A DNA stretch of 64,000 bases from Acidimicrobiales bacterium (GTDB lineage: Bacteria; Actinomycetota; Acidimicrobiia; Acidimicrobiales; CATQHL01): positions 1,433,884-1,497,883 of the forward strand of contig OZ251507.1 in assembly GCA_965242895.1 (NCBI GenBank), in the 5' to 3' direction. Both the position numbers and the translations under genes were made by a program. Shown here one piece after another: positions 22,655 through 32,391 of this stretch. Every line of letters begins with the position of its first letter. Positions within the stretch are counted from its first letter, which is position 1. The notes below the pieces were generated by a model. That model was not told where the DNA came from. It searched no databases and saw only the letters and a program-made list of their open reading frames with translations.

Positions 22655-22998
22655 CGGTCGACCCTCTTCCGGCTCCCGCACGGTCGTTTCCCGGGGCGTC
22701 GTCTATGCACCTCCTCTCGGAGTGAGGTGGAGTGCTGTGAGAGCTGCGACTACACTGGACACATGATGAATTGCCCTTACCTCCAGACCTCCGAGGGAAT
22801 TTCTGAATCGGTCACCTTAGGCGGAGTTTACGCGCTCGGACTGCGCCTAGCGGGGCGGGGGTTGCTGGGGCGCTTGTGATGCCCGGGTGTTGAGGAAGGA
22901 TTGACGTGATCGAGCGTTCGGCTGGCGGTGACCGGCTGTGGGTGTATTGGGTGAAGCTGCTGGGCGGCGGGTTTTGTTGGTGGGGTCGTGTTTGGGCG

Positions 22999-24375
22999 AT
23001 GGGGGGTTGGTTTCGGCGCGCGGCAGTGGGGGCGGTCGTGTTGTTGCTGGTTGTCGGTTGTTCTGGGGGTCGGGTGGGTGACCGCCCGGGGATTCCTCTT
23101 TCGGAGTCTGCAGAGGAGGACGCTGGCGGGGTTCCGTCGGTGGTTGGGGAGGTAGGGGATGTAAGAGATGTTGGGGTTGAGCCTATTCGTTTAGGGTTGG
23201 TGATGGCTTCTTCTGGAGGTTTAGCATTGCTGGATTCTCCTGTGGTTGAGGCGTTGAGGTATGCGGTGCGGCAGGTGAACGAGTCTGGGGGTTTGTTAGG
23301 GCGTCCGCTGGAATTGTTGGAATATGATTCTAATTCTGAGTTGAACGTCGCTTACAACGCAGCGTTGAGGTTGTTGGAGCGGGAAGTTTCTTTGATTTTC
23401 GTTTCGTGTGATTTGTTTTATTCGCGCCCGGTGATGGAGGCGGCCGGCGACGCTGGGGTGCTAGTCGTGGCCCCGTGCGGGCCGGAGCCTCGTGTGGGAG
23501 GCGTGTTTGTGCGGCCTTTAGCGTTTTCTTCAGGCACTTCAGCGGGGAATTACGCTGAAGTCATGGCCGAGCACGCGGTGGCTGAAGGCCATCTGGAAGC
23601 GACAGTTTTCGTGGAGAGCGACGATGAGTGGTCGGTGGAAGCGTGCGATTTGTTCTCTGAGCGTTTCGCTGAGAGCGGCGGGCGTGTCGCGGGCAGGGTG
23701 GTGCTGGACGCCGCGTGGTGGGAGGTCGCAGCTAATATCTCGCGCCCGATGGTCTTGGAGATGCTGGCCGGAGTGTCGCAGTCGCCTTTGTTAGTGTTAT
23801 GCGGCGCGCCAGGCGGCAGAGGAAGGGAACTATTTCATCTGCTGCGTGCTTCGGGCGTGAACTCGCCTGTTTTGGCTACGAACGCTCTCGACGGCAGAGA
23901 GTGGTTGAGAACAGTGCCGAACGTTGGGTCGCTGGCAGTGGTCACAGAGGCTTCTATGTACGGAGACGATCCGAGCCGGCAGGTCAATTCTTATTTTGCG
24001 GGCACTCTAGGCGCCGAACCAGGGACGCCGGAGAGGATGGGGAGGTCGGTCACCGGCGCTGAAGGTCTCTGGATGTTCATACGGGCCGTGAACCTCACGG
24101 GGAGTTTAGATCCCGTGGCGCTGGCAAGAACGATCGAGGGGTTCTCCGACGTCGAACTCTGGATGGGCCCAGCTACTTTCAGCGAGGAATCCCACATAGT
24201 CGAGGGGCGGGCGCTGCGCGTCGTCAGTCACGCCGGTGGAGCCAGCAGGCTCATCGCAGTACGCACCCCCACCGAAACTCCACGCCAGACAACCGCTCAG
24301 TCCTCCACGGAGACTGAGCAGTTCTCCTCCGAAGCCCTCCAGCAGTCCGCGGGAATCGAGCAGCAGTCCTCCTAA
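22999..24375 (+). CDS. Orphan ABC-type substrate-binding lipoprotein (Leu/Ile/Val-binding, Peripla_BP_6-like)
   Basis: MGGWFRRAAVGAVVLLLVVGCSGG lipobox. IRLGLVMASSGGLALLDSPVVEALRYAVRQVNESGGLLGRPLEL is typical of LivJ-type binding proteins. No adjacent permease or ATPase gene is present. Confidence 0.75.
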   Translation: MGGWFRRAAVGAVVLLLVVGCSGGRVGDRPGIPLSESAEEDAGGVPSVVGEVGDVRDVGVEPIRLGLVMASSGGLALLDSPVVEALRYAVRQVNESGGLLGRPLELLEYDSNSELNVAYNAALRLLEREVSLIFVSCDLFYSRPVMEAAGDAGVLVVAPCGPEPRVGGVFVRPLAFSSGTSAGNYAEVMAEHAVAEGHLEATVFVESDDEWSVEACDLFSERFAESGGRVAGRVVLDAAWWEVAANISRPMVLEMLAGVSQSPLLVLCGAPGGRGRELFHLLRASGVNSPVLATNALDGREWLRTVPNVGSLAVVTEASMYGDDPSRQVNSYFAGTLGAEPGTPERMGRSVTGAEGLWMFIRAVNLTGSLDPVALARTIEGFSDVELWMGPATFSEESHIVEGRALRVVSHAGGASRLIAVRTPTETPRQTTAQSSTETEQFSSEALQQSAGIEQQSS

Positions 24376-24598
24376 GTCCCTCCGCAGTCCTCCTAAGTCC
24401 CTCCAGAAGTTCCCGAGAATAGATAGCCGCAGGCGGCTGCTTCGAGCACTTCGTTCGACCCCTTAAGGCTATCTAGCAGTTTCCGGGAAGTGACGGAAAT
24501 TGAATAGCCGCGCGCAGTTTCGGGCAATTCTCCGGCGCGGCGGCTCGGTCCAGGTGAGGCTTTCGGCTTCGACGGGCGAATGATCTTGCCGCTGCGCG

Positions 24599-30247: not shown

Positions 30248-30297
30248 TCCAGTCTGAGTGGTCTAGGCTCCCCGAGTTAAAGGAAGGAGTGATTCTC

Positions 30298-32391
30298 GTG
30301 AAACGCGGAATCAGTTTGCCATTGTGCTTGTCGGTGGCCGTGTTAGCGGTGGCGTGCGGGGGGCAGGGCGCCTCGTCCGCGACTCCCGGAGAGGGTGCTT
30401 CGTCGCCGTTGGGGACGGGCGAGGTTCCGATTGGTGGCCCCACGGTTTCGGCGACTGTTCCGGTCGGCTCCGGTGTTTCCTCTGCCACGAGTGTTACGAG
30501 CAGCACTTTGGTGAGGTTGCCTGCGCCGGTCATGGAAAAGGTCACCCCTGTGGTGGAGGAGATCTCCGGCGGGGGGTTCATTTCGGTGAGCGCCGGATGG
30601 AGTTACTCGTGCGGGTTGCGCTTGGATCGTTCGGTGGAGTGCTGGGAGTGGAGAGCGGATCTGTTCGGCCACCCGGACAGGCCGGGTTGGAATAACGATC
30701 CTTTGGACGGGACGCCCCCAGGTGGGGAGTTCGCGATGGTGGACGCCGGTTGGGGGTACGCTTGCGGGATCCGCCCCACCGGCGGGGTGGAGTGCTGGGG
30801 GTGGAACCCCGTGGCCGCCCTGGATGCCCCCGCGGGGGAGTTCACAACGGTCAGCGCCGGGTTAGAGCACGCTTGCGCTCTCCGCCCTGGGGGTGAAGTG
30901 GAGTGCTGGGGGGTGTCTTCCCGTCGGGAGGGCGTGCTGGTGCTCCCCGACGGGCCTTTTACCTCTGTGGTAGCGGGTGTTGCTGCGGGTGTGGGTTTTT
31001 TGTGCGGGTTGCGTCCCTCTGGTGAGGTGGAGTGTTGGGGGCGCGGTTACAGTGAGGGGGAGGCGTCGCCTCCTCCGGGGGAGTTCAAGTCGATCAGCGG
31101 CGGGGCTGGAAGTAATGTGTGTGGTTTCCGCCCGGACGGTTCTGTGGAGTGCTGGAGTCCATATTTTTTGTTGCCGGATTTCGCGGATGAAGAAGTATGG
31201 GAAGTTTCTTATTTCCAGCCAGGCGGCGTGTTCGAATTGGTCAGTCCAGGATCGTCGGGGTACGCTTGTGGGTTGCGCCCCTCCGGTGAGGTTGAATGCT
31301 GGAATCAGCCTGAGGAGCGGGTGGTACCTGTTCTGGCGGGGAAGTTCAACTGGGTGAGCGTTAAGGGTTTCGTTGCTTGCGGTCTCCCCGTCGGCGGCGG
31401 AGTGGTATGTTGGAGTGTTCAGACTGGGAGTAGCCCTTGGCGGGTGAGCGAGGGAGAGTTCAAGTCGCTTAGCCTCGGGGGGATTCACCATTGCGGTTTG
31501 AGGGCTGATGGTGAGGTGGAGTGCTGGGAATGGTGGGAGGACAAGTTCGGGGCGACTTCCCCCCCGGATGGGCGGTTCGAGTCCGTGAGCGCTAGCGACG
31601 ATTATTCCTGCGGCCTGCGCCCTTCCGGTGGGGTGGAGTGTTGGGGGTCGGATGAGTTCGGGAAGTCGACACCCCCCGGTGGGGTGTTCACCCAGATCAC
31701 TACTTCTAAGGATTTCGCCTGCGGCCTGCGCCCTGACGGTGGGGTGGAGTGCTGGGGGGGTCGTGATTCCCTGAGGCGGCAGAGCAAAGTGGTGCCCCCT
31801 CGGGAACGTTTAGTGTCAGTAGACGCAGGCTGGGGGGGCTGGTATAACTTCGACGATCAAGATTCGACTTTGCGTTACGGGGAGAGAAGGGATTGGGGTT
31901 TTTCGTGCGGCCTGCGGGAAGACGGCACGCCACTATGCTGGGGGGATGCTATTTCAGTTTCAGTGGATTCTAGTTGGGTCTTGCAGCCTCCTGGGGGGGA
32001 GTTCCTGAACGTGAGGATGGGGCAAAGACAGGCGTGCGGGCTGCGCCCCGACGGGTCGGTGGAATGCTGGGGAGGTATCGTAGTCATCGACGAAGACAAG
32101 AACCTATTTAGATATGAGGAGGGTTCCGTCGTCTATAACACTGACCCCGCAGCGGGGGAAGATTACGTGGACTTGGAGGTAGGGGGATGGCACGCCTGCG
32201 GGCTGCGCTCCAATGGGGGAGTGTATTGTTGGAACTGGTGGCGGGGGGCCATAGACACCGATTACGCCCTAGAGGGCCCCTACGAGTCGATCAGCGCTGG
32301 CTACAACCACTCCTGCGGACTGCGCCCCGACGGGGGTATAGACTGCTGGGGGCTAACCGGCGAAATCCAACGCCTCACCGAGGAATCGTAG
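30298..32391 (+). CDS. RCC1-like (beta-propeller) repeat lipoprotein, 14 repeats
   Basis: VKRGISLPLCLSVAVLAVACGG lipobox. There are 14 copies of the pattern F.(S/T)(V/I)S(A/G)G...(A/S)CGLR(P).G.VECWG. RBS AGGAAGGAG lies 8 nt before the GTG at 30298. Confidence 0.8.
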   Translation: MKRGISLPLCLSVAVLAVACGGQGASSATPGEGASSPLGTGEVPIGGPTVSATVPVGSGVSSATSVTSSTLVRLPAPVMEKVTPVVEEISGGGFISVSAGWSYSCGLRLDRSVECWEWRADLFGHPDRPGWNNDPLDGTPPGGEFAMVDAGWGYACGIRPTGGVECWGWNPVAALDAPAGEFTTVSAGLEHACALRPGGEVECWGVSSRREGVLVLPDGPFTSVVAGVAAGVGFLCGLRPSGEVECWGRGYSEGEASPPPGEFKSISGGAGSNVCGFRPDGSVECWSPYFLLPDFADEEVWEVSYFQPGGVFELVSPGSSGYACGLRPSGEVECWNQPEERVVPVLAGKFNWVSVKGFVACGLPVGGGVVCWSVQTGSSPWRVSEGEFKSLSLGGIHHCGLRADGEVECWEWWEDKFGATSPPDGRFESVSASDDYSCGLRPSGGVECWGSDEFGKSTPPGGVFTQITTSKDFACGLRPDGGVECWGGRDSLRRQSKVVPPRERLVSVDAGWGGWYNFDDQDSTLRYGERRDWGFSCGLREDGTPLCWGDAISVSVDSSWVLQPPGGEFLNVRMGQRQACGLRPDGSVECWGGIVVIDEDKNLFRYEEGSVVYNTDPAAGEDYVDLEVGGWHACGLRSNGGVYCWNWWRGAIDTDYALEGPYESISAGYNHSCGLRPDGGIDCWGLTGEIQRLTEES

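Follow-up and report, generated by a model that had tools for sequence, protein, structure and literature searches.

A candidate two-gene surface cassette of a giant metzincin-like protein and an RCC1-type propeller lipoprotein, inserted between tRNA-Thr and sigH in an Acidimicrobiales genome

The stretch of 64,000 nucleotides from an Acidimicrobiales genome that is analysed here (contig OZ251507.1, positions 1,433,884 to 1,497,883; hereafter the window) contains a block of 9.8 kb between the tRNA-Thr(CGT) gene and a sigH-like gene. This block contains only three long open reading frames (ORFs), all on the + strand, which encode a LivJ-type solute-binding lipoprotein (ORF1), a giant protein with FN3 domains and a metzincin-like domain (ORF2) and a lipoprotein with RCC1-type propeller blades (ORF3). 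The same three genes had been picked out by a reading of the DNA without database searches (the sequence-only reading), as a binding lipoprotein, an FN3/metzincin giant controlled by a G tract and a lipoprotein with 14 RCC1-like repeats, all with export signals. The ORF list agrees on the number and strand of the genes, and the details of the giant, the number of repeats and the export signals (lipoboxes for ORF1 and ORF3, a separate Sec signal-peptide ORF for the giant) hold as described. Comparison of their sequences across loci indicates that the giant and propeller genes are a real two-gene cassette, conserved as a pair, and that the LivJ-type lipoprotein is probably a neighbour by history. 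As a whole, this explanation has a modest balance of probability on its side.

According to this explanation, the first gene of the cassette would encode a Sec-exported protein of ~1,830 residues, with Cys-rich repeats, a stalk of eight FN3 domains, a snapalysin-like Asp-metzincin domain and an (R/K)GD tail. Export of the giant would be gated by a hypermutable poly-G tract, which in this consensus is one base out of frame and would correspond to the OFF state. The second gene, located ~50 nt downstream and probably co-transcribed, would encode a lipid-anchored double propeller with 14 disulfide-stapled blades. The propeller would bind the giant on the outer side of the membrane, so as to tether it or to restrain its protease. 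The cassette would duplicate in the form of a giant tail and a propeller gene, and its paralogues would exchange sequence. The LivJ-type lipoprotein would be transcribed apart from the cassette, and most likely hands a small solute to a Liv-type ATP-binding cassette (ABC) importer encoded elsewhere.

The giant gene (ORF2), identified in the ORF list and with Pfam, is a frame of 1782 codons at 24899-30247 on the + strand, and is open from 24845. The protein consists, in this order, of a Ser-rich linker, Cys-rich repeats (residues 54-226, nt 25058-25576), eight FN3 domains (residues 279-1333, nt 25733-28897), a metzincin-like domain (approximately residues 1340-1620) and a conserved beta-rich tail (residues 1621-1782). 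Neither an LPXTG motif nor a lipobox nor a C-terminal transmembrane segment is found in the giant. Because the giant does not have an anchor of its own, the propeller would be in a position to tether it or to check its protease.

The signal peptide of the giant is encoded by a separate ORF of 54 codons upstream (MSLIGLLSIRIASRSALAGVLLAASLVAPVALS..., 24693-24854, + strand, ATG at 24693), which is of the Sec type and is ended by a frameshift. A homopolymer of 16 G (G16, 24830-24845, + strand) lies between the signal peptide and the mature giant, and leaves the signal-peptide ORF one base out of frame. Both ORFs are fused either by addition of one G (G17) or by loss of two (G14). G16 is the only homopolymer of eight or more in the window, save one G8. 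At the equivalent site of the related locus L004, a G13 tract likewise leaves the signal peptide one base out of frame. In another related locus, L003, the G tract is absent and the mature protein continues in frame from a homologous signal peptide. The tract is therefore a homopolymer in the 5' coding region that sets the reading frame and varies in length between strains (16, 13, none), as is the case for contingency loci. Long poly-G tracts recur in the gene family beyond the giant, because a G20 tract (18630-18649 of locus L019) has arisen within the PPGGEF blade motif of a second RCC1 copy, RCC1b, and splits it into two frames. While the length differences between strains are directly observed, phase switching by the tract is probable from the sequences. 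The closest counterparts are the poly-G and poly-C loci of Neisseria, Haemophilus and Campylobacter, in which the frame of a surface-protein gene is set by a homopolymer within its 5' coding region, as in the giant. These differ from the giant gene in that the length differences here are between strains in assemblies only, in which long-read homopolymer error is possible. To our knowledge, no poly-G or poly-C contingency loci are known in Acidimicrobiia.

The metzincin-like domain of the giant (28916-29758, + strand) is tentatively assigned to the snapalysin type of Asp-zincins by its motif and by alignment A1, which contains 11 members of this protease-domain family. The sequence HELGHFLGFGD occupies residues 1545-1555 (nt 29531-29563). 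In alignment A1, H215, E216, G218, H219 and D225 are invariant in 11/11 members, in agreement with the metzincin motif HExxHxxGxx(H/D). The Met-turn position reads SRYSYG at 29603 in the window and SLYSYG or SLFSYG in the closest paralogues, so that Met is replaced by Tyr or Phe. The sequence S[LV]M(S/A/T) is present at this position in 5/11 members, and the window copy lacks it. The profile made from A1 matches proteins in the PDB weakly, with E values of 0.005-0.1 (adamalysin, 0.005; snapalysin, 0.01; serralysin, 0.065). The matches in Pfam are all below threshold: Reprolysin_3 in 6/11 members, Peptidase_M7 (PF02031) in 2/11 with a best E value of 0.005, and also Reprolysin_5 and M43. Weak but consistent, these matches concur on the metzincin clan and on no particular family. 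The domain, ~280 aa within a protein of 1,782 aa, is not a member of M7 in the strict sense.

Among known enzymes, snapalysin (MEROPS M7; PDB 1C7K, 4HX3) and other metzincins share with the giant the motif HExxHxxGxxD, in which Asp is the third ligand. The downstream context 'LGL.D.Y.G.C....S[LV]MS.G' of the relatives of the giant mirrors the corresponding stretch of snapalysin, and an N-terminal helix with '...A..WN' can also be aligned. Snapalysin is, however, a free enzyme of 130 aa, whereas the domain of the giant has ~280 aa with Cys-rich inserts, is located at the end of an FN3 stalk and matches below family thresholds. The family is rare: an exhaustive HMMER search of 1.84 billion sequences yields 44 representatives, a word-index search with the protease domain yields two proteins only, and a scan of JGI metagenomes with the protease profile yields no matches. 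The conserved C-terminal tail domain (29759-30244, + strand) is defined by A1 and is modelled by AlphaFold2 (AF2) with a predicted local distance difference test score (pLDDT) of 77-88 over much of its length. Its motif T-(R/K)-G-D is nearly invariant, with KGD in the window (30092-30100, residues 1732-1734) and RGD in most relatives. The location of (R/K)GD directly behind a metzincin-like domain recalls, by analogy, disintegrin loops.

ORF3 (30298-32391, + strand, with an alternative GTG start at 30289) encodes a lipoprotein with 14 RCC1-type blades, as seen by Pfam, repeat analysis and AF2. It is preceded by a ribosome-binding site, GGAAGGAG, 7 nt before 30298. It matches RCC1_2 with 122 bits against a cut-off of 22, has the lipobox LAVA|C and contains exactly 14 CGLRxxGxVECW repeats with a Cys pair in each. 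It is 100% identical to a protein of 697 aa (P0001) encoded by the source chromosome, a contig of 2,781,752 bp. The AF2 model is all-beta with a mean pLDDT of 78, or ~88 outside the N-terminal linker, and Foldseek matches it with a probability of 1.0 to UVR8, the ACR4 ectodomain, the HERC2 RLD and BLIP-II. ORF3 thus has the features of an RCC1-like propeller, in which repeats of ~40-55 aa occur in multiples of seven and adopt a propeller fold. A disulfide-paired double propeller is predicted from this model, in which two seven-bladed rings and other arrangements are not told apart. For one half of ORF3, the closest match in geometry is the CRINKLY4/ACR4 ectodomain (PDB 7A0J), with a template modelling (TM) score of 0.70 and 24% identity over ~290 columns. 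Since ACR4 is the ectodomain of a plant receptor kinase, with an extracellular seven-bladed RCC1-like propeller, the likeness to ORF3 is of fold alone.

The evidence that carries the pairing comes from relatives of the two genes. An RCC1 lipoprotein gene is located 3' of a protease-family gene, or of its relic, in 5/5 independent contexts, down to ~26% identity. The first context is the tRNA-Thr island, represented by the window, by L003 together with L001, and by L004. L003 contains holB, tRNA-Thr, the binding-protein gene (93% identical) and the start of the giant gene, and L001, from the same sample, contains the RCC1 gene (80%), sigH, the DUF2342 gene and tilS. L004 contains the binding-protein gene (87%), the signal-peptide ORF with G13, the giant gene (68%) and the RCC1 gene. 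Two paralogous lipoprotein genes (529 and 340 aa, without a Pfam match) are located at 315-2883 of L004, directly upstream of the binding-protein gene, so that the content of the island differs between strains. The second context is a DUF6159/ADH locus, represented by L019 and L002. L019, which is a site in chromosome OZ241998.1 other than the tRNA-Thr/sigH junction, contains a Bmp-type ABC transporter, a giant of 1,800 aa, three RCC1 genes, DUF6159 and ADH, and shares its right flank with L002. L002 and L004 were also considered as two ends of one locus, which was rejected because their overlap is just 81% identical. The third context is L005, from a genome of 2.55 Mb, in which a collapsed HELGH relic of 175 aa is followed by an RCC1 gene, a flavin mononucleotide (FMN) dehydrogenase gene and the binding-protein gene (57%). 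In the fourth, L018, the binding-protein gene (52%) is followed by genes for a 2-hydroxyacid dehydrogenase, an acyl-CoA ligase and a 299-aa protein, and then by the giant, an FN3 protein of 1,783 aa with the protease domain in its middle, and an RCC1-type lipoprotein. In the fifth, L017, a protein of 701 aa with FN3 and protease domains (~26% identical) is followed by an FN3 protein of 310 aa and by the RCC1 gene.

The RCC1 gene follows on the same strand after ~50 nt in the window, 39 nt in L004, 47 nt in L019, 29 nt in L017 and 23 nt in L018, so that the gap is 23-50 nt in 5/5 intact loci with both ends readable. A common strand, a short gap and an order kept across genomes are what characterizes a two-gene operon, and these features suggest that the giant and RCC1 genes are co-transcribed. 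Because the protease family is rare and each genome contains many RCC1 genes (at least 17 paralogues on the source chromosome), the chance that an RCC1 gene lies directly downstream of a given gene is roughly estimated as < 1% per locus.

The identities of the protease domain and of the RCC1 protein fall in parallel across loci (68/67%, 44/42% and 26/30%). Outside this clade, propellers and proteases also occur in one chain. Of ten such fusions (P0058, P0061, P0065, P0088, P0092, P0099, P0102, P0105, P0118 and P0073), nine with RCC1_2 and SLH domains carry an M6/InhA-like HExxHxLGLxD motif, and one carries Peptidase_S8. In the former, of which P0118 is annotated by JGI as 'M6 family metalloprotease-like protein', propeller, protease and anchor are in a single chain, as opposed to two genes here, and the anchor is SLH rather than lipid. 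The proteases of these fusions were rejected as homologues of the giant domain, because they are M6/InhA-like and have only the motif in common with it (E values of 0.03-4 with the A1 profile). A precedent for binding is BLIP-II from Streptomyces (PDB 1JTD, 3QI0), a secreted actinobacterial seven-bladed RCC1-like propeller that binds a secreted enzyme tightly and matches the ORF3 model. BLIP-II is a single soluble propeller of ~270 aa, whereas ORF3 is lipid-anchored and double, has a Cys pair per blade and has a partner that is inferred. Binding of the propeller to the giant is plausible because of the RCC1_2-protease fusions, the BLIP-II precedent and the parallel divergence. The propeller most likely docks or restrains a secreted protease or adhesin; both the physical binding and the protease activity are deduced from sequence. 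The gene arrangement resembles that of serralysin-type operons such as AprA-AprI and PrtC-Inh, in which a metzincin gene is followed after a small gap by a gene for an exported protease-binding protein. The inhibitors AprI and Inh are, however, beta-barrels of ~100 aa, the proteases are secreted by a type I system, and these operons do not have the FN3 stalk, the lipid anchor and the multi-copy family of the giant cassette.

The block that contains the cassette is an insertion between tRNA-Thr and sigH that is specific to the lineage of this Acidimicrobiales genome. L006 is the corresponding locus of OZ241998.1, a metagenome-assembled Acidimicrobiales chromosome of 2.43 Mb and the closest genome available. 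In L006, 37 bp separate the end of tRNA-Thr (9963) from the start of sigH (10001). L006 is aligned to window 12555-43770 (31 kb overall) with 72-86% identity as one collinear series, except for a single clean indel, in which window 22659-32473 is represented by 15 bp. Collinearity restarts at 32473, and the sigH genes are 83% identical. The insertion is bounded on the left by tRNA-Thr(CGT) (22582-22655, + strand; ARAGORN, and Rfam with 73 bits) and on the right by the sigH-like extracytoplasmic function (ECF) sigma gene, which is outside the cassette (32492-33157, + strand; TIGR02947 with 215 bits, below the cut-off of 251.55). The genes topA, a major facilitator superfamily (MFS) transporter gene, tmk and holB precede the tRNA gene on the + strand, and a DUF2342 zincin gene and tilS follow sigH on the same strand. 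Whether the junction is empty in relatives was a question raised by the sequence-only reading, and L006 is such a case. The sequence-only reading had also described the block as an interruption of mycobacteria-like gene order; the indel confirms the interruption, while the order is one that is general to actinobacteria.

The location directly 3' of a tRNA gene and the relative without the block are typical of a tRNA-linked genomic island. In contrast to integrative islands of this kind, none of the three genes of the block encodes an integrase or recombinase. No direct repeat of the tRNA 3' end is found at the far boundary, no flanking direct repeat is found in the block, and no Rfam element is detected within it. 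A mobile element was rejected as an explanation because of this absence of an integrase, an att-like repeat and an Rfam element. At the left edge lies a non-coding relic of one RCC1-type blade (SRSEVECC...SESVTLGGVYALGLRLAGR, 22715-22876, + strand), which was detected by DNA repeat family D6 and by blastx. D6 joins 22722-22754 to blades within ORF3, and the blastx alignments of the relic to ORF3 blades are weak (E values of 0.016 and 0.27). The homology between the window and L004 begins at 22714, at this relic. The relic is a hint that the insertion site was shaped by recombination among members of the RCC1 family. The sequences of the relatives are largely from marine sponge metagenomes, and the contig prefixes MKWU, LXNI and LXNJ, which occur among the binding-protein orthologues, denote Mediterranean sponge metagenomes (PMC5099237). 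The genome that contains the window probably has the same habitat.

ORF1 (22999-24375, + strand) is identified as a LivJ-type Peripla_BP_6 solute-binding lipoprotein by Pfam (101.8 bits against a cut-off of 31.7) and by its lipobox LLLVVG|C, which follows Met-22999. A start at this Met is assumed, and the longest ORF begins at 22906. The sequence matches in the PDB are distant LivJ-like binding proteins (4mlc, E 2.5e-9), and the orthologues are 47-93% identical. The Peripla_BP_6 fold together with export and a lipid anchor place ORF1 in cluster B of the LivJ type. No LivHMGF permease or ATPase gene is found in the block, or adjoining the orthologues in L005, L018, L021 and L022. A LivH/LivM/LivG/LivF-type ABC transporter is, however, detected with Pfam 18 kb downstream (42533-46835, + strand) and is a candidate partner of ORF1. 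It is followed by genes for two Peripla_BP_6 binding proteins (46888-49788, - strand; Pfam), which show only 26-35% identity to ORF1, over its N-terminal part. Thus, the earlier description of ORF1 as lacking a permease and an ATPase is correct within the block, and ORF1 is an orphan only locally. The first permease of the set at 42533-49788 has an N-terminal CarboxypepD_reg-like domain, and amtB and glnD-like genes come next after the two divergently oriented Peripla_BP_6 genes.

ORF1 has an upstream region of its own, and a spacer of 318 nt lies between it and the giant. A 20-nt direct repeat (CAGTCCTCCTAAGTCCCTCC), present in two copies 1 base apart, extends across the stop codon of ORF1 (24364-24404, + strand; exact string search). 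A promoter-like site, consisting of TGCACA, 17 nt and TATAAT with a TG-extended -10 region, is located within the spacer (24600-24628, + strand). It agrees with the consensus at 10/12 positions and is the best promoter-like match in the 10-kb block. A TATAAT or TATAGT box is found at the equivalent place in L004 and L003.

Joint inheritance of the three genes, which the sequence-only reading had put up for testing, holds for close relatives, since L003 with L001 and L004 keep all three genes with 77-92% nucleotide identity across the block. At greater distance, the giant-RCC1 pair alone persists. A scan with the alignment of binding-protein orthologues yields four further loci at 48-50% identity (L020, L021, L022 and L031). 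The protease and RCC1 profiles have no matches in these loci within 10 kb on both sides for L021 and L022 and within 7-10 kb, downstream only, for L020 and L031, so that 4/7 orthologue loci are without the pair nearby. Conversely, the giant-RCC1 loci L017 and L019 contain no such binding protein. The binding-protein orthologue has neighbours of its own. In 6/6 loci (L018, L020, L021, L022, L031 and L005) it is located beside a 2-hydroxyacid dehydrogenase and an acyl-CoA ligase gene, and in 5/6 beside a fumarase gene. The exception is L018, in which the giant-RCC1 pair fills the slot of fumarase. Hopanoid-pathway genes (hpnH) are located upstream of the binding-protein gene in L018, L021 and L022. 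The pair is inserted downstream of this metabolic block in L018 and upstream of the same block in L005, and L022 contains an unrelated insert of 5 kb at the position of the pair in L018. The order of binding protein, giant and RCC1 in the window is the order of L018 minus three genes, so that inherited proximity explains the adjacency well. The adjacency of the binding protein is most likely due to an older common neighbourhood and not to a three-part machine.

The alternative that all three genes form a true module, in which a solute is sensed by the lipoprotein and the latter acts in physical contact with the protease/adhesin and the propeller, is quite unlikely to be correct. It has the trio kept adjacent in the close relatives on its side, together with the binding-protein orthologues that lie 2-3 genes from the pair in the distant and differently arranged L005 and L018, the latter with the order and orientation of the window and three extra genes between. 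Moreover, 4/4 binding-protein orthologues examined by context have the pair or the start of a giant nearby. These facts are outweighed by the four loci without a protease or RCC1 gene in the flanks covered, by the two pairs without a binding protein, by the metabolic character of the constant neighbours, by the promoter-like site inside the 318-nt separation and by the Liv-type importer 18 kb away. Of the three-part sensing, adhesion or processing system that the sequence-only reading had put forward, the pair remains and the binding protein probably drops out as third part, given its own neighbourhood and the 318-nt spacer. The statement that no such trio is known stands, though the real unit is the pair.

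The pair occurs in multiple copies and as mosaics, and in tandem arrays with remnants of giant tails. P0147 and P0148 are further giants encoded by the source chromosome. P0147 is 100% identical to the window giant over residues 114-850 and 56-70% identical in the protease domain. Over the final 60 residues the two are again almost completely identical, and the best explanation of such a mosaic is gene conversion. In L019, a remnant of ~60 residues of the giant tail precedes each extra RCC1 copy (RCC1b and RCC1c), which indicates that the unit of duplication is the 3' end of the giant gene together with the RCC1 gene.

The three genes had also been said to share an aberrant composition. The overall GC skew lies between +0.23 and +0.26 for the binding-protein gene, for codons 1-1330 of the giant gene and for the RCC1 gene, as compared with -0.07 to +0.15 in the 34 other genes of the window. 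The claim therefore holds for the three genes except for the last ~450 codons of the giant, which are normal; the bias of the giant declines smoothly to background by approximately codon 1400. The bias extends to third codon positions and is located at synonymous sites. The third positions of the first 700 codons of the giant consist of 2% A, 14% C, 53% G and 30% T, as opposed to 12, 37, 35 and 16% in 22 other + strand genes. The L004 giant (5125-10515) shows the same gradient, and the two extra lipoprotein genes of L004 carry the same G/T bias at third positions. The L019 giant (10001-15403) starts G/T-rich and then becomes C/A-rich as in a mirror image, and the L018 giant (15622-20973) also switches the sign of its bias. 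The biased stretch of the window giant coincides with the segment that is identical to P0147. Foreign origin was rejected as the cause of the bias, because total GC is normal, the homologues are all from the same clade, the bias fades within the gene and its sign flips in a sister giant.

Several observations weigh against the two-gene cassette with a switchable, catalytically active giant as we explain it. The consensus tracts of the window and L004 are both out of frame, which could reflect decay or homopolymer miscalls. With Tyr in place of the Met-turn Met, the window copy is only putatively competent for catalysis. AF2 models the protease and tail region poorly (pLDDT 59), and Foldseek gives no match to this model at E <= 0.001, so that the metzincin assignment rests on motifs and weak profile matches; the matches that Foldseek returned for this model (MtrC, anthrax PA and proMMP-7; E ~0.2) were dismissed as meaningless. 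RCC1 lipoproteins (at least 17) far exceed giants (at least 3) per genome, so that an obligate partnership with a giant is impossible for most propellers. In the island, L005 and L018, which are arranged differently, no more than five genes separate the binding protein from the pair; this is above chance expectation and leaves some link between them conceivable. Finally, all loci belong to one clade, so that common ancestry inflates the apparent independence of the contexts.

A broader reading, which we regard as rather improbable, is that the cassettes, in their several copies, constitute a surface system of sponge-associated Acidimicrobiia that recombines and varies in phase, in which the stalk is subject to gene conversion, the head and propeller diversify, poly-G tracts turn single copies on and off, and the compositional bias is due to targeted strand-specific mutation. 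If this is true, the system could serve to alter the cell surface in the face of host phagocytes or phages, and the (R/K)GD loop behind the metzincin could engage host integrins in a disintegrin-like manner.

That the pair is of a polymorphic effector-immunity style, with a variable C-terminal metalloprotease, the RCC1 lipoprotein as its cognate inhibitor and the extra propellers as a stock of orphan immunity proteins, is unlikely. The paralogue mosaic, in which the N-terminal 740 residues are identical and the protease region is divergent, fits this style, as do the tandem RCC1 array of L019 with a fragment of the giant C-terminus before each copy and the parallel divergence of protease and RCC1, which is, however, expected of any co-inherited neighbours. 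Established examples make an inhibitor conceivable, namely BLIP-II, an RCC1-like propeller that inhibits its enzyme at picomolar concentration, and metzincin operons with cognate inhibitors such as AprA-AprI. The remnants in L019, however, are the last ~60 residues only, and these orphan units contain no catalytic domain. In addition, the partner is a 700-aa lipoprotein whose double propeller is far above the typical size of immunity proteins, and there is no dedicated secretion or delivery system nearby.

The last alternative, that a tRNA-adjacent hot spot gathered three unrelated surface-protein genes without coupling and that the giant is a decaying pseudogene, is very unlikely: the numbers of RCC1 paralogues (at least 17) and giants (at least 3) per genome, the relic blade at the left edge, the two further lipoprotein genes in L004, the giant out of frame in two assemblies and the collapsed relic of 175 aa in L005 speak for it, but the adjacency of giant and RCC1 in five contexts with gaps of 23-50 nt down to ~26% identity already disfavours it, as do the intact frame of 1,782 codons, the in-frame version in L003 and the catalytic motif that is invariant across the family.

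Three features elsewhere in the window may be recorded. An ORF of 850 codons at 38498-41050 encodes a protein with PanC (pantoate-beta-alanine ligase) and class II Lys/Asp/Asn-type tRNA synthetase domains, and the next gene is that of a type III pantothenate kinase. A tRNA-Sec gene is present at 8408-8501, which indicates that the organism uses selenocysteine. The gene for apolipoprotein N-acyltransferase (Lnt) at 60376-61869 is consistent with triacylated lipoproteins.

Each part of the cassette is of a known kind, the arrangement is undescribed, and no published description of the giant-RCC1 pairing is known to us. Proteins rich in FN3 domains and exported are enriched in sponge-associated Actinobacteriota (PMC8163846, PMC11706023). 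Surveys of eukaryote-like FN3 proteins in sponge symbionts count domains, whereas the cassette of the window is a concrete gene pair. A text search of two papers of this kind finds no mention of RCC1 or metalloprotease, a full-text literature search joining Acidimicrobiia, sponge and RCC1 gives no matches, and literature searches on PF13540 and on phase variation by poly-G in Actinobacteria yield no prior description.

Acidimicrobiia rank among the most common symbionts of sponges. For the question of what they display to their host, the cassette is a concrete and testable unit, with several copies per genome of 2.4-2.8 Mb and with hallmarks of surface variation such as homopolymers, mosaics and tandem arrays. 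The strand bias at synonymous sites is a separate puzzle, and could be the sign of unusual mutation or recombination in these genes. Should the propeller turn out to be the anchor or the inhibitor of the protease, this would give a role to the large and uncharacterised RCC1_2 family of bacteria, and would explain why its members are repeatedly fused to proteases.

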